A DNA stretch of 64,000 bases, from contig JAHRHZ010000009.1 of assembly GCA_024137785.1 (NCBI GenBank), positions 16,080,793 to 16,144,792 on the forward strand. The letters are read 5' to 3'. Position 1 is the stretch's first letter, and each line of letters starts with the position of its first letter. The notes under the pieces were generated by a model. The model ran no database searches, was not told where the DNA came from, and worked only from the letters and a program-made list of their open reading frames with translations. Shown here piece by piece: positions 1 through 62,499 of the stretch. The DNA is from Ginglymostoma cirratum (lineage: Eukaryota). Position numbers and translations under genes: made by a program.

Positions 1-190
1 CTACCTACACTCACCTTTACTGGCTCCATCCCCGCCTCTTCGACTTGTCTGCCTCCTCTCCACCTATCCTCTCCTCTATCCATCCTCTATCCGCCTCCCC
101 CTCTCTCCCTATTTATTTCAGAACCCTCTTCCCCTCCCCCATTTCTGATGAAGGGTTTCAGCCCGAAACGTCAAGTTTTCCTGCTCCTAT
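1..190 (+). mobile_element. 3' end / pseudo-LTR of a Penelope-like element with a hammerhead-like core
   Basis: Pyrimidine-rich tract followed by CTGATGA-AGGGT..GCCC-GAAAC-GTC (145-172). The same motif family recurs at 42.4, 48.4, 50.9, 53.2, 61.0, 61.3 and 61.9 kb. Confidence 0.6.
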
Positions 191-511
191 CTTACATGCA
201 TTGTCCAACTGTGTGGGATATAATTCCTGGTCACATGCAATCTCGACTATGTCATAGTCATTGCGGATTGATCATAACCATCTCTGCATTGCAGGAATAA
301 TTACAGACAATCTGAGAAGTCTTACCTGAGGGCCACAGTCACAAAGACAATCCAAATGCCAAAGCATGCACAAGGGCATGGAGCTGATTTCCTCTCACTT
401 TGAAGCCAACATGCTTTTAGATGCAATGCCGCCTTTCTTGGGGTGAGAGGAACAATATTTCAGAATTCCTGAGGCATTTACAAGGTCCTGTTGTATTTGT
501 GTGACATGATT

Positions 512-11149: not shown

Positions 11150-12644
<1,495 letters not shown>

Positions 12645-14477
12645 TCAGTCAAGCAAAACCACACACCCCTGAATCTTCCGCTGCTTTCATTTCTCTCAGG
12701 TCCAACGCCGCCCAAAGCACCCAGATCTAGACGCTTACAATGTAGAACAGTGGTGTTCCTGACATTCTTAATCTCAACCAAAAAAAATTCAAAATGAGCC
12801 AAATTGAAGTCTTAAGCAGTGGACGGAAATACGTTTGACAACATTGATTCGCGTTTAGATTCGAGTGATTAATGTGAGTGTGCTAAGTATTCGGTTTCTA
12901 AGTCCTGTGTTGTTCGGGTCCCTCTCTCTGAATGGAAATAGTCACATTAAAAGGTTCGCAGCTGCCTTCCTCAGCTGATGGCAACACAGGGAAAGGAAAT
13001 ACTTCATCGCGTTTACACAATGGCAGAATGTAATTAAAGAGTCTGCTGCAACTCGCAGAATGGATTCTGTGAATTCAATTAATTGATCCAAACGAATTCT
13101 AGAAATGAAATAACCGAACAAAGATTAAGCAGCAGCAGTCTCAGTTTACCGCGTTCGTTTCCACGTGTCGGGATCTTTTTTATTAAACCAGTCCCCGGAT
13201 ATTCTTATTTAGGAGACTACACTGAGTGTGTTAAAATGGCATTTGTGTCAGAAACACTGAGCATTTCCCGTCTGAACTTTGCATTTTACAGACTGACGGA
13301 ACTAGGAGGTGGGAATCACACAGGAATACGGAGTAAACAATGTAACATTACCCCTTCCCTATTAGCATTTAAATTGTTTCCGAAAAGATATGTAAACCGC
13401 CTCGAAATCTGAAGTATAGCCACACCAAGCAAATAAATTTCCCAGTTGAAAACCTTGCTAAAGACTTGTCTGACACCTATGACTAATCATACAATCGAGC
13501 GAACAATGGGTCTTGCATTCTGTTACCATTCTCTCCAAAAAGCAAATAGCCTTTGCGATTTTTGAAAAAAAACTTCTTAATTATCGCTTTTGTTTCCACC
13601 ACCTTTAAAGAGCCAGTGATTTGGAAAATACTGTATAAACATGCGGATAAATAATACATGCCGCACGGTTGAAGCTCTGTTTAATTTCTCAGCTGGCTGC
13701 CACGTTTAGCCCAGGACCCTCTGTCCTTAGATTACATACTGACCCATATTCAACGTTTCTGCTCCAAATACTGGCGGCTGCTGATGACATAATTCTGCCC
13801 ACTCTAGAGAAATATTATGCAATGCAGCAGAAATTATAACTCGCAAAGTATTCGTTCAGCAAACTGTCTAACAGCGGATGTGTTTGTCTCGAACCACGTT
13901 CAACTTGTGGGTCGAGGCAGCTTTCCTACACAACACGAAGCAATTTTTCACGTCTTTTACATTTTCGATTCGCTCCTATCAAGCGGCCAGAATTAGTGAA
14001 ATGTGTATTTTTTCTTGAATCTCCACTACGGCGGATTTTTTGCAATTTCATTTTAGAGTGTGCAGTGTGATTCTAATTATTAAGGATCGGAGAGTAATGT
14101 GAACAAATTTGGTGCTAAAACGTGTCGAAATAATTTACAAACTATGACCCCACCGCAAAAAAACCCCCCAAAGAGTTAGATTATTCTCGTATTGCTACTA
14201 GACAGAGCGACGACAATGGGGGTTTCTGGAGTGGTTTGGAGAAGTTTATTAAAGCGGCCACAGCGACGTTAATATCAGTGCTTTTAGCAAGATATAAATG
14301 ATTGAGATGTACGCGGAAAAAAAAACCGAATGAACTGTTAAATGACATGCGAATGAGAAAAGGACCGGCGCTCCCTTCTAACCGGGACACGGTGGAGGGT
14401 TGGGGAGTGGGGGATGGTGAGACATGGTGGTGGGGGGCGGGGGGGGGGGAAGGAGGATTATTGTTTTTTTTTGTTAC

Positions 14478-15480
14478 CTGTATGGGTGCGTTTGTGGATC
14501 TTTAAGTTCTCCGACCTGGCGAAAACTTTTCCGCAGCCGGGGAAAGGGCAGGGAAACGGTTTCTCTCCCGTGTGGACCCTGATGTGGTTCACCAATTTGT
14601 ATTTGGCTTTGAAAGGTTTGCCGTCCCGGGTGCAGTCCTCCCAGAAACAGACATGGTTGGTCTGCTCAGGTCCTCCGACGTGCTCCACCGTGACATGGGT
14701 GACCAGCTCATGCATGGTGCTGAAAGTTTTATTACACGATTTCTTGGGGGTACTCATCTGCTCGGGGTCGACCCACTTGCAGATGAGTTCCTGTTTGATG
14801 GGCTGCCTCATATACCTGAAGAAAGCTCCGGGGCCGTGGTGGTGGTGAGCTGCCATATTCATGCTCATATTCATGTTCATGTGGCTGTAGTTGGGGTGGT
14901 GGAGCTGAGCCGCCGAGTAAGGGTCAGTCCTGGGACACTGATCCGAGCGGCCGAATACTTCCCCGGGTAGACCCAGGCGCATCTGGCCGTTGAGGACGTG
15001 CGCGTTTGGAGACGAGTGGGATCCTCCTTGCTCATGAATCCCGGGGAACAGGAGATGTCCCGGAGGCTCGGAGTGAAGGCTGCCTGGGTTCGGCCCGAAG
15101 ATCCCGTGTTGGCTGGAGCCAGGGCTCGACTCACTGAAGCCGCGGCTCCGGAACAGAAACTCCCGGGTGGAGTTGAAAGCGGCGCCCGAGTATGAGCTCA
15201 CATGAGCGGCGTGAGGAGCCAAAGCCGCCGCGTAGCCCGGCCCGGCTGTCGCTTGCGAGCTGAAAGCCGAGCTCTGACCCGGGGACGACAGGTCGTGGTG
15301 GACTCCGCCGTTCAGTTTGAAAGCTCCCATGTGAGGCGAGTCGACGAAACTGTTCTGAGACAAGCCGAGGTCCCGGTCGGACATATCGGCGCCAGAGTGG
15401 TGGTGGTGATGGTGGTGGTGGTGCCTGGCGAATGTGCCCACCCCGAGGCTCGGGAACTGGGGTCCCGCATCGAGCAACAT
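14478..15480 (-). CDS. zic2: Zic2-like zinc-finger transcription factor, coding exon 1 (N-terminus, ZOC, ZF-NC, ZF1-3)
   Basis: ATG at 15480 reads [28 protein letters not shown], then ZOC motif [29 protein letters not shown] and C2H2 fingers ending KIHKRTHTG. Phase-1 donor ACAG|GTAACA at 14478/14477. Zic family is certain; the Zic2 call rests on the N-terminus, C-terminus and Zic5-like partner. Confidence 0.9.
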
Positions 15481-15542
15481 GCTTTCCACTATATAAAAAA
15501 AGGCAGGGGAGAAAGCCACAGAGATCTCCCCACCCACCGACA

Positions 15543-15945
15543 CCACAACACACACACACACGCACACACACGCACACAGAGGGATCAAGCAGCAACTCAG
15601 AGACGCCTTCCTTTTTTCCCCCTCTTGTTATTGTTGATGAGAGCGATTTCTCAAGAAGCCAAAACACACCGGTCCATGAATTCAACAGCTCGAGTCCAAA
15701 TCTTCGCCTCTTTCTTTTCACAGTTTCTGTCTTTCTTGAGAAATAAATAAGCGATGACAAAATAGATCGAGCCAAACGATCAGGTACAACTTTCTCTCTC
15801 TCTCTCTCTCTCTGTGTCCTCTAGTACAGTTTTTATTGCGATCACGTAGAAGTTGTTGCAGCAGCAATTCCCACGGAGCAGGAACCGTCTTCTTTGAAGC
15901 CTCTTCCTCTCTCTATATGTCTCTCTTTCTCTCTCTCTCTCTTTG
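15543..15945. repeat. (CA)n and (CT)n microsatellites in the zic2 5' leader region
   Basis: (CA)n at about 15547-15578; (CT)n at about 15793-15813 and 15905-15942. Confidence 0.85.
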
Positions 15946-25560: not shown

Positions 25561-25786
25561 TGTGAGAAAGGAGAGTTAAAAGTGCTCCAACAACAAAAAA
25601 AGAGAGCAAGTGCTGGAACCGAGCTCAATATTTTCCAGCTTTGCTTTTTTTTGAAAAAAAAAGTTTGGGGGCGGGTGGGGGGAGGGGTGGGGGTAGTTGG
25701 GTGGGTTTTGGAGAAGGGGGGAGGAGAAGAGAGAGAAAACAAACGGTACCACCAACTACTGTGTGGATGGGCAGGCTTGTGTAGTT

Positions 25787-26807
25787 ATGGAAGCGGCACT
25801 AAGCAAGCGGAATCCAGCGTTGAGATTAGCGGATTTGGCAGCTAACAAATACCATCCCCATCAGAATATGTCAGGTTTCCCGGGGCTGGCGAGTCATACA
25901 CACATCCACCCTGGGGAGATGAGCAACGATCCTAGTGTGGCTCTCACCTCTTTCGGGCCTGAACACGTGGCTCAGTCCAGCAGTGCTCTCAAACTCAGTC
26001 CATCTCACCACATGGCCGGACACCCCGAGACGCAGACAGCGGCGATTTTCGGCTCCGCGCAGAACTCGGTCAGTTACTCAGCGGGCCATGCCCACACGGG
26101 CTACGGCAGCGGTAGGGATTACATGCTCAGAAGAGATCTCTCAGCGTCCGCCATGCATGGGCTGACTGAGCAGCACCCAGCGTCTTCCTCTCACCACCAT
26201 CACCATCACCATCACCACCACGGAATGTTCCTGTCAACCCCAGGGAGCTACGGACACCCGGAGGTCTTCCCGGGGCTCCACGAGCAGTCTGCGCCGGGAT
26301 CCCACCACACTTTAAACGGACAGATGCGCCTGGGTTTGCCGGGGGACTTGTACAGACCTGAACATTTTAACCATCGAGCCGAGCACTACCCGGCCTCTTC
26401 CCTGCACAGTTACAACTCCATGAACTTAAACGTTAACCTGGCGGCGGCTCATCACGGAGCTGGGGCATTCCTGAGGTATATGAGGCAGCCTATCAAACAG
26501 GAACTCATCTGCAAGTGGATCGACCAGGAAGACTCTTCAAAGAAATCCTGTTCGAAAACTTTCAGCACCATGCATGAGTTGGTGAACCATGTCACGGTGG
26601 AACATGTCGGAGGACCCGAGCAGAGCGTTCACGTTTGTTTCTGGGAGGATTGCCCGAGAGAAGGGAAACCATTCAAGGCAAAATACAAACTGGTAAATCA
26701 CATCAGAGTTCACACAGGCGAGAAACCATTCCCGTGCCCATTCCCGGCTTGTGGTAAGGTATTCGCTCGCTCGGAAAACTTGAAGATACATAAAAGAACT
26801 CACACAG
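25787..26807 (+). CDS. zic5: Zic5-like zinc-finger transcription factor, coding exon 1
   Basis: ATG at 25787 reads [31 protein letters not shown], a Zic5-type N-terminus. Contains a His10 tract, [15 protein letters not shown] and ZF1-3. Phase-1 donor ACAG|GTTGGT at 26807/26808. Confidence 0.9.
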
Positions 26808-29800
26808 GTTGGTGTTTCTAAGCGGGATCTCGCTTTGTCCCCCTTCAGCAAGTGCGTCTCGCTGGTTTGTCTCGGGCACAGCTTAAGTTAGAAGCAGAAC
26901 GAGAAGTGATTACTTTGGTGGAGTCTAACCAGTCTCATTTTTTCACCATCTCAGGAAACAACCCCCCTAAAGCTAACTGGCCTGCACTCGGCTGCACAAA
27001 AGCCCTAGCATGTGGAATGAAAGTCTCGCGGCTTCATTTTGAAAGGTGTCGGAGATTTCCGTGGGTGGGAAACAGGCCGGGAACATTTTCAAACGGGCTG
27101 GGGAAAAAAAAGAGGGGCCTCCCTTTGTTTCCTGCCCCAGGAATTACGAGTGGAAGATGTCACCAACTTAAAACTGAAGCGACCAGCCGCAATGGGTTGG
27201 AAGTGTTCTCAGGTCTTAGAAAGGGAAGGCTCCACTGAAAGTCCGATATTTCAATCCAAATCTATTTTTAATTAAAAAAGAATTACCCACGACGAAGTGA
27301 AAGGCAAAGAATGATAAATAAGGACAGGAAGGTTTCAATGTAGACTTGTGATAGGCTTAGGGAACAGGGCAAAAAAAAAATCGAAGTTTGTGATCAGATT
27401 GGACCAGTAGCCGGCTTTAGCTGTTGAAATTTAAGACAGAGTCCCTGAGAGAAAGGATATCAATACCCTCACAGACAGCGTGCTATTGTTTGGCTTGATC
27501 ATTGGAATAATGAAGATTTTTTTATGTGACCCACTGGCAGTAAATACGCTACAGGAACAATCGCAAATCCCCCGAGGGTGTGCCCTGTCTAACTTGAACT
27601 AAGTTCACTGCAGATCTTTCGTATATCTTTTTTTGGTTGCTTGCGAAATAAGGCAACCTGGTCAGAATTTATTGTTGCAGACAGATATTATCCCTTGGAG
27701 AATGTTTATTGACGTATGCTTTGCTTAATTGTTTCCACTGATTTATAGCGCGCTGTCACAGGGTATAAACAGATAGTGTTACACCTATTCGTTTAATGCC
27801 TGCTTAATTTGTTGTTTAAATGTTAAAAGCAAATGGTCCATGACTGCTCTGGCTATAGATTTTATCTAAAGAATATGTTGGACTGGTTTTAAAAGACAAC
27901 ATCGGAGAGTGGGAGGGGGCTGGAAGCGAACTGTGGATTGTACTCCAGTTTTGCCCAGGACCCAATTGGAGGGCTAGATTCGCTTGCCCAAATGCTCAAT
28001 CTCTTTCTAAGGGTATTGTAGAAAGAAATTAACGTTTTAAAAACTTCATTCCTGTCCATCTCTCTATAAGTTTTTCAGACCATACTGTTTGCTTTCTACT
28101 CTCCCAGCACCATATTCTGAAGCAGAAATTGTAATTGAGAACAAGACAACTCTCTCTGGAGTAGTCCTTGTGTCTTTTCGGGCCTTCCTTTCATGGTTCC
28201 AAACTCGAGCAATAAAGTGGCCATTTACTGACCTTTCCAATAGTGTCCACTTCGACCTAAAGCAATATGTCCGGGTTCGGAGACAGAACGCTAAATGCTC
28301 GCATCATAATATTTTTAAGTGGGTCATGGATTAAAAATAACACAAAAATGGTAATTAGCGTCATACGGCGAAGCAGAATTACTTTCTTCACTTCAGCGAA
28401 GCTGCAAGGTAAAGCTGTCCATCACTTGGTGTCGATCCCCACAAATGGAACTGATGTTGCTAAAATTCTGTGAACAGACTGGTTGCAGCATACTATAGCC
28501 CGTTGCGGAAACACAGCTGCACGGGCAGAATCAGTTTCGCCGCTGTATTTAAGAAAATATTATATATAATGCACAAGCATTTAAATGTAACCCCAGGCAT
28601 CAACACACACACAATATGGCGATGTGAGCTAAGTGTGTTTGTAAAGTCTATTACCATAATTCTCTGTTTTAAAACACTGCATTCCGTCAGTTCGAAAGTT
28701 TATGTGTAGCCTCTGAGACTTCTGGTGCCAGTCTGCAGATTTGATAAGGTTGGAAACACTTGGTGTTCAGTCGCATAGTATCAATCTGGGTTTTGCTGAG
28801 AAGTTTATGCTGTGTTTGAAACCTGTGTGTGTGGAGGTTTTGCTCAAACCAGACCATTGTGTTTACGAAAGTCACGTCCAGAGAAGAGGAAATCCACTCA
28901 GTCCCTGCTCTGCATTGATCCATGCAAAAAAAAAGAACGAGGCTTAACTGTGCAATATCTGGGGCCAGGAACAAAGATGAGTAGCAGACTGTAAGTTCCT
29001 AATGACAGTGGTACGCTGTCAGGTTCAAATTGGTCCTGTTTTCTGGCAAAGTCATGTGTTTGAGGGCGAATCCATTTTTATCGGTCAAGTTTTTTTTCTT
29101 GGATCCCTAGCTCACGCAAAATGCAATGCAACAATCAAAGGCTGTGAGTGTCTTCCTCCTGACATGCTGCTTGGGGCCGGAAACTCCGACCTAACCGTTA
29201 GGTCAAACACCAGGCACGTTCGAATTGCTAGTTTATGACCAGCCCCTGGGATCCAGGCACTGCACCGAGCTACAGCAGAGCTAAATATAAATATTTACAG
29301 TATACAAATCTGGAAGACGCCTGCGGCCACTGCCATGGGTCCAGCCCCAACTCAAACCCCCGTGTAAGAATATTAACACGAGACAGGATCCAAAATAGGA
29401 ACATCATTTTGCTATAAAGATTCCGCCAAGTACAAGCCAGACAGTCAGTGCAAATAAGGCTCAATGATTCTAAGAAGGACAGTCACCATGTTGTTTTTTA
29501 ATGGTATAAAATGAGTGCTGTTACAAAAGATGGCCACCATGCCTCGTGTTATTGTCCTCATCCAGTTCAACTTCAAGCCTAGGCTCGAAGTTACTGTGAT
29601 ATGAAACCCATTTTCCCCAATCTAAAGACAGGCAAGTAAGCAAGATTGTTGGTCTGGCTGCTTAGTTTACGAGAAGTTGACCTGTATTTATAGTGCTGCT
29701 CCTCGATTGGGAGAATTTAATGCAACAAGACTAACTCTTCATATGGCAGGTCGATTTCAGTTTGCCTAACTTATCGGATTGTTGGTTACCAGATAACAAA

Positions 29801-30450
29801 ATATACAGTGAAAGAATTACATTGAGGAGTTTGGGGAGAAAGCGAGTAATGTCCCGGGGTAATGTCCCGAGCTGCTTAACCGCTTTAATTCGCCAGGTTG
29901 CAGGCTTTTATCTGAACAAATTCTGTCCACAGAAATATCAAATCCCAATATTCTCTTCACGGTTTCCAATAGTCGAAAGACCGAAACAGACTAGCTTGAA
30001 AGAAAAACGTCAATATTAAAACTGGCCAGTGAAATAAGTTTTTTTAAAGAAAAAACGTCTTAAAACTTCTTGCCAAGGAGGTTTGCCAATAATATCAGCG
30101 CCAAATTACTTTCCAAGTGAAATGTTGTGGGATAAAAAAACGCGTTCAGTTGGAGTTTAAAGTTTATCAGTTCTTCAGAGGAAGAATGTGGAATTTGGCA
30201 GAAATGTATCTTATGCAGATTCGCAGCGTTTTCAGGAAAATCAGACGAAAAAGGAGTATTTCTGCAGGAGACGCGTTCACGCCAGACTAAAGTGTGAATT
30301 AAATTATTTACTTTCAATACGAAGAGTTCCATACGCACTCTAAAATAAAAAGCAAAGCTGAGGATGCGTTGGAGAGCACAAAATCTCCGCCAGCAGGTCT
30401 CGTTGTTAAACCTTTTTATTTTATATACGTGCACACTTACAGAAGGACAT

Positions 30451-30555
30451 ATCAATTTGTCTAGCGCTTTTTACGACCTGAGAATCTTATCCCAAAGCGC
30501 AATACAGTCAACGGAGTACTTGTTTTGATGTGCAATCACTGTTGAAATACAGGAA
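30451..30555 (-). mobile_element. Ancient DeuSINE (SacSINE1/AmnSINE1-like) 3' tail fragment in the zic5 intron
   Basis: TAGCGCTTTTTACGACCTGAG..CCCAAAGCGC..TACAG..GAGTACTT..TGTGCAATCACTGTTG is similar to copies at 47.5, 49.2 and 62.5 kb. Confidence 0.55.
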
Positions 30556-30702
30556 CTTACTCTTGCAACTAGGGGTAAAATGGTCATGTTGAATTCGGAC
30601 CAGTGTATACAATCAATTTGTTAAAATAAGCTTGGAAAAAAAACTTACTATATACAACCACTTGGCTTTATTCCCTTATTGTGTTTACTTTATTATTTTC
30701 AG

Positions 30703-31136
30703 GAGAGAAGCCTTTTAAATGCGAGTTCGATGGTTGTGACAGGAAATTTGCCAATAGCAGTGACAGGAAGAAACACTCTCATGTCCATACCAGTGACAAG
30801 CCGTACAACTGTAAAGTTAGAGGCTGCGACAAGTCGTACACTCATCCCAGTTCCCTTCGCAAACACATGAAGGTGCATTGCAAATCTCCCCCACCTCCCC
30901 TCACTTCTGGTTACGAGCTCTCCAACACATCCTTGGGGATAGTGTCTCCAGCTTCAGAGCCCGTCAGGGGCCGCACTGCCAGCGTCTCTTCGCAAGTCAC
31001 CAACCTCAACGAATGGTACGTCTGCCAGGGGAGCGGGGCTGCCAACAGCCTCCACACATCTTCAAGCAACGGTACCTCATCCGACACTGAGGATGAGGAG
31101 GTTTACAGGGACCCAGATCCCAGGACTATGCTCTGA
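30703..31136 (+). CDS. zic5: Zic5-like coding exon 2 (ZF4-5 and C-terminus)
   Basis: Acceptor TTATTATTTTCAG|GA. Reads [65 protein letters not shown]...[12 protein letters not shown]...DPRTML*. The two-exon structure and C-terminus fit Zic5. Total 484 aa. Confidence 0.92.
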
Positions 31137-42159: not shown

Positions 42160-45100
42160 AAATAACATATAGGAGCAGATGCGGGTCATAGCCAACTGAG
42201 TCTGCTCTGCCATTCAATGCTGACCTGGTAATTCTCAACTCGATTTTCCTGCCTTTCCCCTATCACCTTTGATTCCCCTATCAATTAAAATCTGTCAATC
42301 GCAGACTTAAAAACCCAGCCTCAATAGCCCTCTGTGGTAAAGAATGCTGCATTGACTGCCCTGTGAAAGAAAAAAAGTTCCTCCTCATCCCAGTCTTAAT
42401 TGGCCAATCCCTTATGCTCTGATGAAGAGTTATCTAGACTCAAAACATTAGCTTGTTCTCTCTCCATGGATTCTGTCTGATCCGCTGTGATCTCCAGCAT
42501 TTGTTATTTTCAGTATAGATTCCAGTATCTGCAGTGATTTGCTCCCCTTGTGCTAACATTAAGCCCTGTGGGCCTAAACTCTTCCAGAAGGGGAAACAAC
42601 ATTTTCACATCCGTCCTGTCACATCCCTTTACGAATCTAAACTCTAATGAGTACAAACCCAACTTGTTCAACTTTTCATCATAAGAAAATCCCACCATTC
42701 CGAAAGTCAACCTTGTAAATCTTTCCTGGATTGAATGCGTTGCCAGTATAGCTTTCCTTCGATAAAAGTCTAAACCTGTTCACAGTATTGCAGCTGCAGT
42801 CTGACGAGTGGCTTGAATAGTTTTATCAAGACCTCACAAGTTTTATACTCCATTCTCTTTGAAATAAAGGCAAACTGTGCACTTGCATCCCCTATTACCT
42901 GCAGAACTTGGATGCTACCTTTTGTGATTCATGCATGAGGACAACCAAATCCCTCTGTGATACAGCTTTCTGCAGTTTTACCCCATTTAAATAATATTCA
43001 GCTCTTCTAAGCTTTCTGCCAAAGTGCATAACCTCACATTTTCCCATATTATTTCCAATCTGCCAAGTTTCACTTAACCCTTTGCAAGACTCTTTGTGTC
43101 ATCCTCACTACTTGCCTGTCCACTAATTTTTGTGTCATCCATTAACTATGAAATAGTGCATTCACCTACCTTATCCAAGACATTAATACATGTTGTGAAT
43201 AATGTGCCTGCTGCGGTAATCCTGTGCCACTCCACTTATTATTGGTTGTCATTCTGAAAATATGTAATATGTAACTTACTGTCCATTTTTATAGCACTTG
43301 CTAGTTTTTCATCATGGCTTATTTTCTCCCTCTATTTGGTTTTTGGTCATATTTTATTGGCTTTTAAAACTTTTGCAATCCTCAGATTTACCAATAAGTA
43401 TTGCTACATTGATTGGCTACATTGTGTGTTTCCTTTCAGTTTGGTACTATCCTTGATTTCCTTGGTTAACCATGGTTAGTTTATTGCCTTCCTAGAGTCC
43501 TTCTTCCTCACCGGGATATATATTTGCTGTCAGTCAAGAACTATTTTCCTAAATATCTGTCATTGTTCCTCAAGCATCTTTTCTGCTAAACTTCTTTCCT
43601 AAAGCATTACAACGAGCACTGCCCTCATCCCTATGTAATTACCTTATTTAAATTTAACACAATTGTTTCTGACCCAAGTTTCTCACTCTCAAACTGCATG
43701 CCAACTCTACCATGTTATGGTCACAGAGAATCTTTTACTCTGAGATCATTTATTAAATCCAGCTGAATCACACATTACCAGATACAATCACTTATTGGAT
43801 CCACAATGTATTGTTCCAAGAAACTACCCTGTATGATCTCTATGAATTCTTCTTCATGTCTACCTTGGCCAATTTGATTTTCCCAATCTACCTGAAGATT
43901 AAAGTCGCCCATGATTAATGTACTGTATTTTTGGCATGGCCTCATTATCACCAGATATATTGTCTGTCAGCTACTGTTACTGGGCCTGTAGACTACTCTT
44001 AACAGTGATTTCTTCACCTTGTTATTTCTTATGTCCATCCATGTGGATTCTACTTCGTTTGATCCTAAATCATTACTTGTTACCTGACATATTCCATCTT
44101 GTATTATCAAATCTACCTTACTATTCTTCCATTCCTGTCCTTTCAAAAACTCACGTACTCCTGAATATTTAGTTCTCGGCTTTGATCACCTAGCAACTAT
44201 TTCTTCATAACTGCTGTTAGATGTTGCTAGTTAATCTCTACTTGCACCAGAATTGATTTATTTTGTTCTAAATACCACATGCATTTATGTAAAGTGTCAT
44301 TAATTATGCTGTTTTCCTTTTTAACCCGCTTTGACCCCATTTGTTGCTGTTGTTTACACTTTTCCATTCTGTTCCTCCCTTTTCTGTTCTACTCTGGGTA
44401 TTATAACCAAAATGGTTGCTCTGCAATGCTGCCATATCTTTTGCTTTATTTGCCTATGTATCCCTCCCTTCTGAATTTCCTCCCGTCTATTTAGTTTAAA
44501 GCCCTCATTACAACTAAATTTATTTGAGTTGACAGGAACCTGGTCATAACACGGTAGAAGTGAAGCCTGTCTGACTGAAACTGTTCCCCTCTACCCCAAT
44601 ACAGGTACAAGTGCTCCACGAACTGAAACCCATTCCTCCCATACCAATCTTTAAACAGTGTATTAAACGCCTTGACTTTATTTATTTTGTTCCAATTTCC
44701 CCATGGGTCAAGTAGTAATTCCAAGATTATTACCTTGGAGGTTCTGTTTTTAGTTTAGCATCTAAATGTTTAAAATCTTTTAGCAGAATTTCCTTTCCGG
44801 TCTGATTAATGTTATAAGTACTAATATGGACATCGACAACTGGATCCCTGTCTTTCCACTTAAAGTCACACCTCAGCCTTGACAAGGTGTCTATAAACAG
44901 GCAGGTAATGCTGCTGCAATTAATATTATCCATTCCCCTAATTATACTGTCCCTAACCAATACATTACTGCTTCGTATCCATACTTGAATGTCTCCCTGC
45001 ACCTTATGGTGTCATGATCAGTTCTCTCGTCCTCCCTGCAGTGCCATCTCTCATCACACATCTTGCAAGAACCTCATCACTGTTGGACAATTGTAGGAAG
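42160..45100 (-). mobile_element. Long decayed CR1 LINE (ORF2 remnants plus ORF1 esterase remnant), interrupted by a Penelope-type insert at 42415-42545
   Basis: ORF 42510-42710 SYDEKLNKLGLYSLEFR matches CR1 ORF2. ORFs 44491-45002 (DSIIRG...VVDVHISTYNI and WYGRNGFQF...DRLHF) match the SGNH esterase of CR1 ORF1. Confidence 0.75.
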
Positions 45101-47595: not shown

Positions 47596-48390
47596 ATTTC
47601 TTTTTACTGAAGCAAATGGACTGTATGTAGCAAATCAAAACTTTCTGATAATATGACAATATGCCATAGAAATGCAGGAGTTTCAATTTCTCCTCTTTAT
47701 TCAGATGCACTTAAGCAACAACCTAACTGGGTTCAAATGAAGTGGAGTGGAATCACCAATATCAGAAACTTCAGTATTGCTTCCTAGAAAATACTCGTGA
47801 CTTTCTTGGCATGATTGACAGGAGGTTGAGAATTGGCATTAAGAAATGCCTTAACAAATTGGCAGAATTTAACTCTTATAAACATTCTGAACTGAAAGGG
47901 AATTGTATTCCACCCAGGAAAGGATCCCCACTTCTTTACAACAACGGAAAGGATGCACCCAAATATTTATACTTCCAAGTGAGGAAAGATGAACTGGTTC
48001 TCTTTTTCTTATTCAACCCCCTCCCTCAGCTGTTTCAACAATGTTAGTGTAGAGAGTATCCCTTCCCTCGTGAATATCTCTTGCCAATTCAAATATATTC
48101 ATGATTGAAAAGGAAGCAATTTAACCAGGATTTCTTGAGTTAAAGAAAGAGTGAGTTTATTAGGTACAAAAATGTGGGAAAAGTTAATAAAACATGACAC
48201 ACGGGTTAGAAATGAGAGGTGAGTCCAAAAATAAAAGTAATAGAAGAGAATATACAAACCAGTCTTTGGTCTGTTCATGATGAATAGATTGTGAAACATT
48301 GCAGGAGTGAAGATAAATGATTGTAGTAGCACTGATTTTGGCAGTTGAGTAGTTGGTCCAGTGTCCTTCAACAGTGGCTTTTCTGACTTA

Positions 48391-48480
48391 AGGTGTGGAG
48401 CTGGATGAAGACCGCAGGCCAGGCAACATCAGAGGAGCAGGAAAGCTGACGTTTCGGGTCTGGACCCTTCTTCAGAAATT
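48391..48480 (-). mobile_element. Penelope-type pseudo-LTR fragment with intact hammerhead-like core
   Basis: Minus strand reads CTGAAGA-A-GGGTC-CA-GACCC-GAAAC-GTC-AGCT. Confidence 0.65.
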
Positions 48481-49409: not shown

Positions 49410-51530
49410 GTTCTGAGCATAAGAGTTGGGAAGAGAAATAGGCTATCTGGCTCCTGAAGCCTATTCCGTCATTTGAGAAAATCAGGCCTGACCTGCTTAT
49501 GAGTGGAACTCGACATTCCTGCCTACTCCTGATGTCATTTTGAGTCCCGTGTCAGTCAAGAAGCAATCTAACTCAGTCTTAACAATATTCAGACCCAGGC
49601 ACTGCTGCTGTCTGGAGAAGAATATTCCACATGCTAAAGACCCTCTGAAGAACAAATTTCTCCCTATTTCCATCTTATCTAGGAAAGCCCTTTTTTTTAG
49701 ACAGTATTCCTTAGTTCTAGTCTCTCTTATAAGGAGAAACAAACTTTCAATAACCACTCTGTAAAGTTCTCTGGGATCTTATATGATTCAATAAAATCAT
49801 TTCTCATTCTTCTGAGCTCAAGCGGAGTCAGGTCTGTGTTGTTCAACCTTTTCTCATAATATAATTTCATCAATTCAGCAATCAGTTGAGTGAAACCTCT
49901 CTGTACTGTTTTAATTGAATCCTTTCCTAACTAAGGACACCAAAATCATAACTGGTACTCCAGATGAAGTTCATCAACAATTATAGCAAAACTCCCCTCT
50001 TATCATATTCCATTTCCCTTGCTGAACCTGTATACTAGCTTTCTGTGATCCCTCTGTGCAACGTTCTGCAATCTCACTCCATTTAAACGATATACTGCTT
50101 TTCTATTCTTCCTGCCAAAGTGGCAGGTTCACGTGTACTATTTTATACTTTATCTGCAAATTTTTTTGCCCACTCATTTAATGCATATATATCTTTTTGC
50201 AGACTATTCATGTTCTCATCACAAGCCACTCTCTCTCCTACCACACTTTGTGCTGTCTGCAAATTTGTCAACCATACATTTAGGCTCTTTATCCAATTAA
50301 ATGATAGAGATTATAAATAGTTGAGGCCACAGAGCTGACCGAACTGGTTACATCTTGCTAACGCAAAAATGACCCACTTACTCCTACCTCTGCATCCTGT
50401 TATCTTATTAATACTCTATACACGCTGGCATGCTATAACCTATACCATAATTCTGTGTGATAATTTTTGATATAGGAAATAATGGGAGAATCTCAAGATG
50501 GCAGGCTGTGGTTAGTGGTGTACCACAAGGGTCAGTGGTTAAGCTTCAGGTGCTATTAAACTATACCAATGATGTGGGGACAAAATGTAACCTTTCCCAG
50601 TTTGCAGATGATATGAAACTAGCTGAATACTTGTATGTAAGGATGATTCAAAGACATTTAAAGTGGATTTGGACAGCGGAGTGAGTGGGCAGGAACACAG
50701 CAAGTGGAACATAAGGTGAATTAAGTGAGAAGTTATTCGCTTTGGAAGGAGGAACACAGGTGCAGAATATTTCTTAAGTGATGAGAGATTATATACAGAG
50801 TCTATGTTGAAAGGGCCTGGGTGTCCTTTCTTAACAGTTGCACAATCCTGAATGAGATAGCAAGTACTGCTGATGCTGGAGTCAGAGATAACACAGTGTG
50901 GAGCTGGAGGAACACAGCAGGCCAGATAGCATCAGAGGAGCAGGAAAGTTGAGGTTTTGGGTCAGGACCCTTCTTCAGAAAGATCCTTTTTCTGAAGAAG
51001 GGTCCCGACCCGAAACCTCAACTTTCCTGTCTTTCACAAAACCATATTGACTCTGCCTAATAACATTATGATTTTCTCAGTGCCCTGCTTTAACCTCCAG
51101 CATAACAGATTCAAGTATTCTCCTGTGACAGATGGTAGGCTGACTGCTCTGTAGTTTCATGCTATCAGTTTCCCTCTTTACTTGAATAGAGGAGTTGCAT
51201 TTACCATTTTCCGACATGAAAGGATATTTCCAGAATCTAGGCAAGTTTGGAAAATTTCTATCTACCATCTAAAAGAAATTTATTTCATGGTCCTGGAATG
51301 ATATCCATCAGAGACTGGCCGCATGTCAGCGTTCAGTTCTAATAATTTTCTCAGGCCCTTGCCCTGTAATTGTTTTAATTCCTTTCCTTTCAGCTGTTGA
51401 TTTTTAAGTATTTCTGGGATGTGCTTTGTTTATTCTCGCATTCCTTTGTTTCTCAAGATTATTACCCCAGATTCACTTTCTAGAGAACTAATGCTCACTT
51501 TGATTAATCTTTTCCGATGTGCCATGGCAC
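49410..51530. mobile_element. Nested CR1 fragments on both strands, with an inverted Penelope-type insert at 50861-51029
   Basis: Minus-strand ORF 49497-49757 is CR1 C-terminus-like. Plus-strand ORF 50457-50684 WQAVVSGVPQGSV..QFADDMKL is RT core. Minus-strand ORF 51077-51268 is CR1-like. Confidence 0.75.
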
Positions 51531-54189
51531 TTTTTTAAATCCACCCGATAAGGCGTCTTCTTTTGAGACTTGGTTCTAGTTGGGATAGGGCCGACAGCGA
51601 TTTGAAGCTCAGTTGTACTGAAAATGTAAGGTTTTTTCTAGTGCATATCTGGAAGTGCTTTTGAGAAAACTAAGAAAACATACATGATAGTGTATAAAGT
51701 GAGTGTTACGCAGAACTTGTTTCAGTGTATACAAGTGTGTGTTTGACAGTTGTAAGAAAAGACTGCATGTGAGACATTATGGCATGCTGTCATTCAATGC
51801 TGGCAGTGCAAATAAAATGAAATGAAACCAAGAGAGGATAAAAGAGGTTCTAAACAAACAGATGTTCAGGGGCAGATGGATTTTAGCACAGAGTGCTGAG
51901 AGAAATTGGAGTGGACATTGTTAGGGACTGACAATCTATCATGAGAGAATCATTTTGGACGCAGGGAACAGATCAAGTTGGAATGCATATTCAAGAAGAA
52001 TGACCAAAAAAAAGATGCCAGCAATTTACATGCCCTTTCCTGTGTAAGATATTGCAATTTAAAATCATGGGCAAAACTGAGGATAATTTTTTCAATAATA
52101 ACAGAGTAAACAGCAGCCAACTTGGTTTCACAATGAAAAGATCCTAAGAAATCTTCTTAACTTGTTTGAAGGATTGACGACTCATGAATAGTTGGAAATC
52201 TTATGATATCCTATGCACAGGCTTCCAAAAATTGAGGCAATTCAGCGTAAATCTTGGGAATGGAGAAGAAAATAGCTGAAAGAGTAGAAAACAGCATTTT
52301 AAAATAAAATCTGAAGATGCTGATCATTGCAGCAAAGCCATAATTATTTTTATTACCCTGAAAAGATGGTGATGTGCCTTCTCCTTTAACGACAGTTGCC
52401 TATTGTACTTACTGTGCTTCACATGGGGGAGTGAAATATGGAATTTTAGAATCCAGATGCAATGAAGGAAACATAATGTGTATCCATATCAGGATGTTGT
52501 ATGACATTGAGATGACAGTATTCTCTGAGTCCTGTTATGCATGATATTCTTGGTGTTAGAGATCTTACAACTACGAAACGCTCTTGAAATTAGCTTGGTG
52601 AGTTGCTGCAGTGCATCTTGCAGCATGGAATTTGATGGAGGTGAAACTTGATAGAGGAGTTGTATTGGATGAGATTTGTTGTGGTGAATTTGAGTGCAGT
52701 ACCCAAGGGACTAGCATCAGAACCACCACTATTGATAATACATGTTAATTAATGACTTGGATTCTGAAAACAGAATACAAATTGGTCAAACATGCACCAA
52801 ACAAGCACCAAACCAGACTAGCAGTGGAGTCAAGGGAGACAGCTCAAAAATTACAGGGTTAATTAAACAAAATTCATAAGTGAGTAGATTCATGGCAGAA
52901 AAAGGCAAAATGTAAATATAACAAACATTAGATGTCAATCAGACATATAACTTAAGTTTGTTTGCTTTTGAATTGATGGATTTGGCACAATCGTCAAGGA
53001 AACCAATCATTGATTTCTTTGAATGTTAAAAAGACTGTATGGGGGCAACTTTTACAGAATGCAGTAGGAGGACACCCATTGGATCAGGTGGAATGCTGAT
53101 TTTAAATTTCATCAATTGTGCCAAAGCTATCTGACCAGTCAGGAAACCAACAAGATTGGAAGGGTTTAGGCCCGAAACGTCAAGTTTTCCTGCTCCTATG
53201 ATGCTGCTTGACCTGCTGTGTTCATCCAGCCCCATGCTTGTTATCTAAGATTGGATGCACTATTGGCTTTACACATCCTTCTGATTTTTATCAACATTGA
53301 AACCAATGAGTAACATTGGAGAAATAGAAAATCTGTTGCACTTGATACTGTATGTTTTGCTGCAGTGAGTTAGGGTGAAACTTTTTCTATATGTCAAGAG
53401 TATAACAGTGTGTCTTTGACCAAGTCTTAGATCATCTGGTCTAATATCTTTGAATGTGGTTCAGTGTCAAATTTGACTTTTTAAATCTCCTGTGAAGTGC
53501 CTTGGGTCATGGTTTTGTAATAAAGGCATATTATAAATGCAACCTGTTGTTGTTGCATATTGGCAGTGTGCATGATAGAGTACAAGTAAGACACAGTACA
53601 AAAACATGCAAGTGAAAGACCATGGGTGTTTCAGAAAATGGGCAAGAAAGTGAATGTGAGAGGATGTACGTGAGAGGAAGAGTGTGAAAATGAAATATGA
53701 ATGTATGCCAAAAAGGATGCATCCAAATAAAGTAATGAAGTCTCAGAGTACATGTTAAAGAATCTGAGGGCATGAGAAAGTGAGTGAATTGTGATAATCA
53801 GAAAGTGTGACAGAGAATATATACCCGTAAGTGTGCCTGACAGTGTGTGATTATCAGTGTCTGTATTAATGTCTGTAACTGAGACAGTATGAGAGAAAAG
53901 GACTATGTAAAAGAGCATATATGTGAGAATATATCTATAAGACACAAGCCTGAACATTCCAGTCGCACATCCACTCTGGAAGGTACACAGAGATCCAGCT
54001 TCTGCCCAGCTGACTTTGGGAATGCTGTGTTAGAGAATGTGCAAAAGAGCATTTGTGAGTGAATATGTGTATAGGAGAATAGAGTGCAACTGTGAGTGAT
54101 ACTGTTAGAATATATTCTATTTTAGAGGACAGCACAAGGTGATCTGAAAATAAGTGTATGAGACCATGTACACAAGTGGGATAGGGGAA

Positions 54190-60400: not shown

Positions 60401-60921
60401 TTGTTCCCCAATTCTCTCACGCTTTAAAATGCAATTTTATACACGGCCACCACCTGACCCCCTCACTACTCAACCTAATGCCCCTCCTCCTCCCCCCTCC
60501 CCTCCAACACAAGGAAAAACATGCTGGTGTACATTATCCCACTGGCATCAAACAATACCATCCAAATGAAATGGACAATTGTGATTTAACAAGCCCGAAG
60601 CATTCAACATTGATTAGCCTTACGTGAGTGCAAAGAATTCCAATCTTTCCCATCCTGCCGGGAAGTGAAACCACTGAGTTTGATCAACTCTCTCCGTTCC
60701 TAATGCAGCAAAAGGCCGCCCAGATTTCACAGCCGCAGGATTCCTTCTCTCGCACTTTTGCAGGGCACTGGAAGAGTTCACTGGAATCAGTCGCATTTCG
60801 CAACATTGTTGCAACTCCATACCTTCAGAATAATGTTTCATTCGTAAACGTGCCCCGTGAATGAATGCACTCAGCAGCATTGGAAAATGATTCGATTGGA
60901 AAATGGACGTAAATTAAATTC

Positions 60922-62081
60922 AGAACAAAAACAGAGGTTGCTGGAAAAGCCCAGCAGGCCTGGCAGTATTTTGTGAAGGGAAAAACAGGGTTAACGTTTC
61001 GGGTCCGGAGACCCTTCCTCAGAACTAAATTAAATTGATCCCTAACGAATAATGGCAGCAAACGAGAGCGGAACATTTACCTTGAGTGAAAGGCATTTGG
61101 AGAGAACGAAGGGTCCAAAATGCCCGATAAAATTTCAACTTTACTTGTGACTGAGTCGATCTATCGAACCATAGTTGGGCGTCTCCACCTTTAAAAAAAC
61201 GTCATTCCGTCAAGGTAAGGTTCCCAAGGGTGATGGTAGAAATTCAGAAATGGGCAGTTTAGGAGGAAATTACTGCAGATGCTGGAATCTGTACTGAAAA
61301 CAAAAAGAAAATGCAGGAGATCACAGCAGGTCAGGCAGCATCCATGGAGAGAAAGCAAGCTAATGTTTCGAGTCCAGACGACTCTTGTTCATAGTTGGTG
61401 AAAGAGGAGAGGGGGCAGCATTTAAGCAATAGTCGGGGGGAGGATGTGGAGCCCTGGGGGAGAAAGTGTGTTGATAGTGCATTCAGTTTTCAGTTTTGCT
61501 TCTTTGCTGTGTTAGGATAGATGGTGACAGTGGCATAAGTCCACTTTCATTCATACAGCGTCTTTTACATGAAACTTCCAGAGGCAGCAGTAACACGGCT
61601 TGCAACAGGTCATCGACCACCTTACTAGCTTCGTGATTCAGAAATGAACACCAATTTAGCCATGAGTTTAAGAACAAACCAGAGGTGGTTCGAAAACTGT
61701 CGATTTTCAATCCTCATTTGCAAGTAGATACTTAAAAGATATTAATTCCTGTCGGTCGGGTCTTAGCACATCAATAGTAACGGTGACACAAATATTGAAT
61801 TCAAATTGTCTCAGGTCAAATAATCGTCAAGACAAATCTGCTCATTATTTACCGAAAGAACTGCGGATGCTGTAAGTCTGGAACTAAAACAGAAGTTGCT
61901 GGAAAAGCTCAGCGGGTCTGGCAGCATCTATGAAGAAATAATCAGAGTTAACGTTTCGGGTCCGGTGATCCTTCCTCAGGACCATCCTGAGGAAGGGTCA
62001 CCGGACCGGAAGCGTTAACTCTTTTTTTTAACAGATGCTGCCGGACTTGCTGAGCTTTTCCAGCAACTTCTGTTTTTGTTG
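60922..62081. mobile_element. Cluster of Penelope-type pseudo-LTR elements: 60922-61026 (-), 61261-61395 (-) and an inverted pair at 61851-62081
   Basis: Shared CTGC(A/G)GATGCTG..GCTGGA..CAGC(A/G)GG.C.GGCAG.AT..GTTTCG(G/A)GTCC consensus. The last copy is a long inverted repeat with a 3-nt loop at 61982-61984. Confidence 0.7.
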
Positions 62082-62499
62082 CATATTATTTACTCTATAT
62101 TCACGAGGTGAATGATTCGCATATATCACTGCCACTCTGTCGTTTACCCCTTTGAAACCATAGTACGTGATAATGAGTACCCTACTGTAAAGTGGTGGGT
62201 GTGATTCTGTATAAGAGATCCCAGATTTTCACCTCCAGCTATGCGTTGCTTAATAACTGATCGTAGTTTTGTAACATCATACTGAGTGTAGTGGCGGATA
62301 AATCATCGTCAGGGAATAGCATAGCCCTCGGGAAAACCTCTCAGAAACTGAATAAGCAAATAGACACGGTGCCGATGTTTTTGTAATGACGAGGTCTGAG
62401 GAAGGTGCGTGGAAAAACTTCAATTCCTCAAAACAAGTCCCGTACTCTAGACAGCGAGTGCAGAAGTGAGTCTCGCATTCGTGGCCAACTTCAATAGAA

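Follow-up and report, generated by a model that had tools for sequence, protein, structure and literature searches.

The closest described relatives of the motifs analyzed here are the minimal hammerhead ribozymes of metazoan Penelope-like elements (PLEs). As reported by Cervera and De la Pena (2014, PMC4209133), these ribozymes lie in both pseudo-LTRs (pLTRs) of the element and share with our copies a type I core with an extra base between positions 9 and 10.1, a G10.1-C11.1 pair, a loopless palindromic helix III and, in three of our four subfamilies (A2, B and C), a short helix I. Thousands of solo copies and opposite-strand pairs are likewise common to both, and the hammerhead-ORF-hammerhead arrangement is already published in that work. 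Its fugu row has CUGAAGAA and C-GU-C, as in the copies described below; a shark row is absent from the supplement files searched (all but one file). By contrast, helix II is 4 to 5 bp here compared to 7 to 8 bp there, and in the accessible text of that study no copy ends are reported and the start of transcription is not located at the motif.

Other PLEs offer further points of comparison. The Poseidon element PAc of Anolis (Frangieh et al. 2024, PMC11167929) resembles the elements studied here in that two reverse transcriptase (RT) start sites define an optional tail, both strands are cut and extended, and uncut RNA is the main template. It differs in that its ORF begins inside the hammerhead, whereas the likely start codon here (putative MPTLKK) is found about 130 nt past the core of the full-length element L132; a Neptune-type zinc linker is present here, and no ends at the cut were found for Poseidon in the accessible account. 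Neptune- and Nematis-type EN+ PLEs (Craig et al. 2021, PMC8557442) are similar in having an RT, a CX4CxxC linker that is a mark of these two groups, a C-terminal GIY-YIG domain and a DKG motif, as well as an inverted 5'-truncated copy and a tail at one end, the likeness in clade being drawn from the linker only. The Penelope pLTRs of Adineta vaga (Arkhipova et al. 2013, PMC3846280) also carry a putative TATA box and initiator and occur head to head, with target duplications of 8-10 bp; unlike here, the accessible text makes no link to a hammerhead and ascribes the head-to-head arrangement to antisense self-priming. Non-LTR retrozymes (Li et al., bioRxiv 10.64898/2026.07.22.740005) are similarly non-coding hammerhead repeats derived from PLE pLTRs and are reported also from one cartilaginous fish, but form head-to-tail tandem arrays, whereas the copies described here are solo or head to head. 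The role of the hammerhead for PLEs has been termed unclear (PMC8557442, PMC11167929).

Hammerhead motifs of the window and their elements

The window is a 64,000-nucleotide stretch of the Ginglymostoma cirratum genome (contig JAHRHZ010000009.1). A first-pass annotation of its letters had described a recurring hammerhead pattern, and each place that it named was found to carry the motif or a decayed form. A search of the window with a minimal type I descriptor (CTGANGA, a 4-bp helix II, GAAA and NNTH) returned four matches, compared to a mean of 0.01 and a maximum of 1 in 100 dinucleotide shuffles. These complete cores with a 4-bp helix II are located at 145-172 (+), 48448-48475 (-), 50992-51019 (+) and 60993-61022 (-); CUGANGA, GAAA and UH are present in all four and in the majority sequences of all four subfamilies (A1, A2, B and C) that were identified from the cores, where at least three had been claimed. 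An Rfam search of the window detected no hammerhead family among 13 matches up to E 10. The mir-1296 matches of that search at 50944-51026 correspond to an A1 inverted pair and not to that microRNA.

One copy is the 3' end of an A2 element at 1..190 (+), which comprises 3' UTR, TATA-like box and hammerhead and is 98.4% identical to the 3' end of L132; its tail breaks off 18 nt past the cut site and its upstream part runs beyond the window. The box, TATTTAT at 110..116 (+), is a putative promoter element; helix I begins 31 nt below it, a spacing as in B and C. The hammerhead itself (141..176, +) has a 4-bp helix I (ATTT/AAGT), its core at 145-172, a 4-bp helix II and an ACGT palindrome, with a predicted cut after 172. 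The focal copy at 48390..48479 (-) is a solo A1 copy with a short tail that begins at the first base of helix I. Its core (48448-48475) is complete as the annotation had stated, but the GGGTC/GACCC stem assigned to it encloses only 2 nt, so that 4 bp can form, and its helix I (ATTT/AGCT) has a U.C mismatch. A solo B copy at 60915..61026 (-) also begins at the first base of helix I; its core (60993-61022) is complete, with a 5-bp helix II, three of four helix I pairs and a target duplication of about 11-13 bp.

The remaining copies are paired or decayed. An A1 head-to-head pair at 50854..51029 (both strands) joins a left arm (50854-50981, -) with a long tail and G12 changed to A to a right arm (50989-51029, +) with hardly any tail; the arms had been listed as degenerate, and this holds for the left arm and for the lost palindrome of the right (ACCT for ACGT), but the core at 50992 is complete. 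A B head-to-head pair at 61851..62083 (both strands) has a long-tailed left arm (-), a short-tailed right arm (+), damaged cores in both arms and the target duplication ATTATTTAC. An A2 copy at 53159..53252 (+) is broken inside the core (no CTGAT) and has a short tail and an 8-bp target duplication, AAGATTGG. A solo C copy at 42416..42545 (+) starts within helix I and has a dead core (G12 to A, ACAT) and a decayed target duplication, CCCTTRTGCT, and an old C copy at 61260..61495 (-; upper end approximate) retains about 100 nt of upstream sequence, with a decayed TATA-like box and a core decayed near 61365-61395. Four cores had been claimed as intact: those at 145-172, 48448-48475 and 60993-61022 are complete, but the left arm at 61950-61979 has an A.C mismatch at helix II pair 3 and, in helix I, a C.A mismatch. 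In general, single copies had been taken to be more intact than they are. The copies of the window are inert relics: intergenic, 5'-truncated and mostly decayed. All of them lie outside a head-to-head gene pair (12-31 kb) which, from the translations, we take to be a Zic2-like gene at 12027-15627 (-) and a Zic5-like gene at 25697-31136 (+), the zinc-finger exons of which form the longest inverted repeat in the window. Other dispersed repeat pairs at 521-674/48932-49077, 2904-3100/54178-54491 and 42949-43026/50048-50122, one with a weak tRNA match (E 7.3), are probably SINE or LINE pieces.

The association with PLEs that the annotation had proposed was confirmed beyond the window. Genome-wide searches with three window copies yielded at least 1291, at least 4124 and at least 2364 candidates, and long frames were located by a genome search with an RT piece. 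Among 20 long-frame regions, L132 and L139 were found to have a hammerhead on both sides of the long ORF, in direct orientation and about 3.5 kb apart. Long A copies extend upstream into a GIY-YIG-like frame, B cores stand behind GIY-YIG remnants (L324, L325), and C cores stand behind RT and GIY-YIG remnants (L327, L328). When five ORFs were scanned, RVT_1 was above cut-off in two and GIY-YIG below cut-off in three; in L098 and L107 a single ORF has RVT_1 above cut-off together with GIY-YIG at E 0.001, under cut-off. A Pfam scan of decayed ORF pieces gave no match in five of seven. A DKG motif is present in the protein, and a CX4CxxC linker (CNRRKCYTC in the L098 ORF) stands between RT and EN; from this linker, which fits the CX2-5CxxC form of the Neptune clade, the clade would be Neptune-type. 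The pLTRs, an optional tail of 30-40 nt, an inverted 5' copy and a target duplication are all features of PLEs. Taken together, these findings support that the motifs are minimal type I hammerheads in the pLTR of PLEs. We consider it probable that the copies are 5'-truncated pieces of the pLTR and that the hammerhead likely forms the first 36 bases of a capped RNA, with cutting predicted for the dimer only.

Subfamilies, dimer folding and starts at the predicted cut site

The fold was examined in an alignment of 22 copies hand-chosen across the subfamilies, with 500 shuffles as control. The unpaired A between 9 and 10.1 is invariant, the 10.1-11.1 pair is G-C in 21 of 22 copies, and the loopless palindromic helix III (15.1-16.1) is ACGT in the subfamily majorities, with C-G kept in 16 of 22 rows. 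Helix I has 4 bp in A2, B and C and two contiguous pairs only in A1, the focal copy included. Pairing was observed in 86.1% of cells and two-sided changes in 11 cells (1/500 shuffles). The stem covariation suggested earlier is borne out by compensatory changes at 3 of 11 pairs (U-A/C-G and G-C/U-G in helix I, G-C/A-U in helix II), but these are few events between related subfamilies, and two of five covariation measures, which count pairs or types, were no higher than in shuffles (391/500 and 455/500). The support for covariation is real, although based on few events. An older subfamily (CTGAAGAAGGGTCACTGGACC) was seen at L146:2137-2165 and in L050 and L025; some of its copies have the same CATAAA box, located roughly 30 nt upstream.

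Because helix III is a loopless ACGU, and in line with PMC4209133, the active fold would require two copies, and dimer cleavage is predicted. Computed energies of the double hammerhead were -19.1 kcal/mol (L035, B), -12.4 (L078, C), -5.1 (A2) and +3.9 (A1). The double-hammerhead fold was the lowest-energy dimer in none of the 13 copies computed, as the most stable dimers pair strands other than these, in many cases those of the palindromic helix II. In L132:5790-5816 and related A copies helix II comes close to a palindrome (GGGTCTAGACCC in some) and pairs between molecules in the lowest-energy dimer; in these models it is a possible dimer signal separate from ACGU. Most genomic copies are dead, and core and ACGT are both kept in 17 of 78 copies reaching the core in the survey described next.

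Copy ends carry most of the information. They were surveyed in 1,064,000 bases (the window plus ten stretches, about 752 kb readable) with a query of tails only, such that a hammerhead was not required; the 312,137 unreadable bases frequently adjoin long or inverted copies. By this approach 164 copies were recovered, A1 being the commonest (68 copies). After leaving out 11 copies with an unreadable 5' edge or at a sequence end, 153 5' ends were scored: 46 at -4 to 0 before the core, 52 in the core, 27 in the tail, 2 at -40 to -7 and 20 farther upstream (the bins miss or overlap by a few). Target duplications were detected in 18 of 74 solo survey copies compared to 15 of 365 controls, by a search that missed those with untemplated bases. 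In A2 genome-wide, 1502 copies begin at the first base of helix I with three non-matching bases before it, and the base directly before this start is G in 784 of them (52% compared to 25.5% expected). A G precedes the start in 13 of 17 solo A2 loci inspected by eye, and in L273 it is the single base outside the target duplication. Among B copies G before the start was counted 335 times compared to 270 for A (T and C not counted). In the ATG-ATTT class the G can come from the inverted partner arm.

A second class of A2 copies begins at the first base after GUC, the predicted cut site. Genome-wide, 329 such starts were counted, whereas the positions three bases before and three bases after have 70 and 101, respectively; when chance matches in the flank are roughly corrected for, the ratio is 526:139:181. 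G precedes the start in only 6 of 30 of these loci. The junction is exact in L240 and L321. L321 begins at the cut of the 5' hammerhead, enters the start of the ORF and, after an internal deletion, terminates within the 3' repeat, which contributes a second hammerhead; the whole lies inside an exact 14-bp target duplication. L322 is built alike, with no clear target duplication. Since A2 copies also begin at the cut site in excess, a minority of the RNAs may have been cut by the hammerhead, a weaker reading than the route of insertion proposed below, and copies of this class may be a record of ribozyme cutting in the animal.

It is also conceivable, if unlikely, that the hammerhead is kept in these PLEs by descent and does not cut here, being an RNA structure or dimerization signal or a passenger, with the cut-site starts arising from microhomology joining. 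At least 4 of the 30 cut-site loci are artefacts or microhomology joints with the inverted arm (L231, L235, L241, L260), A-rich microhomology can raise the A2 count, and the 337 cut-site matches of A1 are mainly TCAG microhomology with the inverted arm plus small deletions. No cut-site peak was detected in the survey, the copies of which are mainly older A1 and B: 4 of 153 starts are within 2 nt of the cut, at 0.8 compared to 2.0 per nt inside the core. A1, with its share of 68 in 164, combines the helix I mismatch with a positive double-hammerhead energy, and the preference of the computed dimers for other strands, often helix II, fits a non-cutting motif as well. In the lizard system hammerhead mutants were unchanged for insertion in vitro and the accessible account has no reads from the cut (PMC11167929), and Naiad PLEs spread without the motif (PMC8557442). 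Against a non-cutting motif, the core is conserved between subfamilies that differ by compensating changes in helices I and II, and the A2 starts at the cut exceed both neighbours about threefold, have no excess of G and include the two exact junctions.

Unstranded poly(A) reads gave deep coverage of the repeat in both orientations, about 30 times that of the 5' part of the ORF (X22, X23; contigs X1, X3). These reads, mostly from copies embedded in host transcripts, had no pile-up of starts or ends and no listed splice joint. Being unstranded and without a pile-up, the RNA data have no bearing on start or cut.

Head-to-head pairs and a proposed route of insertion

Head-to-head pairs account for 68 of the 164 survey copies (34 pairs), and one pair is tail to tail. 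Tails terminate at two fixed points, and a long and a short tail are joined in 32 of the 34 survey pairs and in 71 of 76 pairs from all loci. A target duplication of at least 10 bases is present in 52 of the 76. In 10 of the 34 survey pairs the short tail belongs to the arm that is complete at its 5' end, and the long tail to the arm that is trimmed there, such that neither arm contains the other; neither can therefore have been copied from the other. This structure suggests that each insertion is made from two cDNAs. In vitro, a lizard PLE has both target strands cut and extended, with RT starting at two tail sites (PMC11167929), and the pairs of long and short tails fit this behavior.

By the route that we propose, the endonuclease would cut both target strands and each cut end would prime one cDNA at one of the two tail sites. 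For cDNAs primed in the 5' tail, synthesis would stop at the capped terminus of the RNA after roughly 100-135 nt, and these products would then be joined head to head or to the target. Both arms are from one family in 73 of 76 pairs, with which the use of one RNA twice would also be compatible. As a single mixed case, L062:1500-1745 has a long-tailed C arm head to head with a short-tailed B arm within one target duplication, and this insertion is possibly from two different RNAs. L024:1490-1740 and L070:1640-1760 were rejected as mixed pairs from a single event, as they are PLE copies nested in the duplication or body of other PLE copies.

Head-to-head pairs could instead form when a single cDNA snaps back or primes itself, or when the template is antisense, as has been proposed for rotifer PLEs (PMC3846280); snap-back has been seen for R2 (PMC11371274), and the arms are of one family in the 73 pairs noted above. 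We regard this as improbable for the shark pairs, as it is at odds both with the ten pairs in which the short tail is on the 5'-complete arm and with the union of a C and a B arm in L062.

The fixed 5' end of the copies and its significance

Long copies indicate what stands above the common 5' end. A TATA-like box is found above the first base of helix I at -31 in A, -29 to -31 in B and -31 in C, and that first base lies within an initiator-like CCATTT, TCAGTT or TCAGCT. In A1 and B, copies most often begin one base further into helix I, just after CA. In other retroelements the cap can be copied as an extra G. From the excess of starts at helix I, the spacing of the TATA-like box and the excess of the extra G, considered together, the most probable reading of the sequences is that a capped RNA begins with the hammerhead's first base. 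Literature searches, outside which Repbase and subscription papers fall, revealed no report of capped or untemplated PLE ends and none with this analysis of PLE copy ends.

The fixed 5' end might alternatively be a processing site, formed by poly(A) cleavage after CA below TATAAA or CATAAA, both weak variants of the poly(A) signal, or by a 3' splice site, B and C having CAG there. The modal start of A1 and B is directly after CA. An intron of Drosophila Penelope ends at helix I (PMC4209133). We find this origin distinctly improbable, as family A has TATTTAT and no AG at the site, the spacing of -29 to -31 is common to three upstream sequences that are unrelated, a cap would be expected to leave an extra G and an endonucleolytic cut would not, and no common upstream exon was seen in short copies. 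As separate observations, the B tail (60950-60995, -) has TTAAC at the cut site, a pyrimidine run and then, in the family majority, CAG-ATG, an arrangement that resembles a branch point followed by a 3' splice site shortly past the hammerhead. Likewise, the core CUGAUGA contains an AUG in A2 and C (window 148-192, +), and in the A2 majority this AUG opens a 14-codon upstream frame that cleavage would remove. It is hardly credible that the motif arose by chance or represents regulatory ribozymes adopted by the host near the Zic genes, as, despite the gene pair in the window, shuffles give 0.01 descriptor matches and the copies are intergenic, in both orientations, of a density as elsewhere, decaying at CpG and intact in core and ACGT in only 17 of 78.

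Returning to the capped start, we tentatively propose a fuller model, to which we give slightly less than an even chance: the hammerhead would be the leader of a capped mRNA under the TATA/initiator of the pLTR, two separately primed cDNAs would be made per insertion, and the genome would record both uncut (G) and cut (no G) templates. The motif itself is known; what the copy-end statistics add is a testable model of RNA start, mirror-pair formation and ribozyme cutting. The short copies, which by extrapolation from 164 in 752 kb number hundreds of thousands, provide a free read-out of template ends, from which a transcription start, a route by way of two cDNAs to the head-to-head form and the proportion of templates that were cut can be read. 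If true, the record of uncut and cut templates would count as evidence for in vivo cleavage by a minimal hammerhead of a metazoan.
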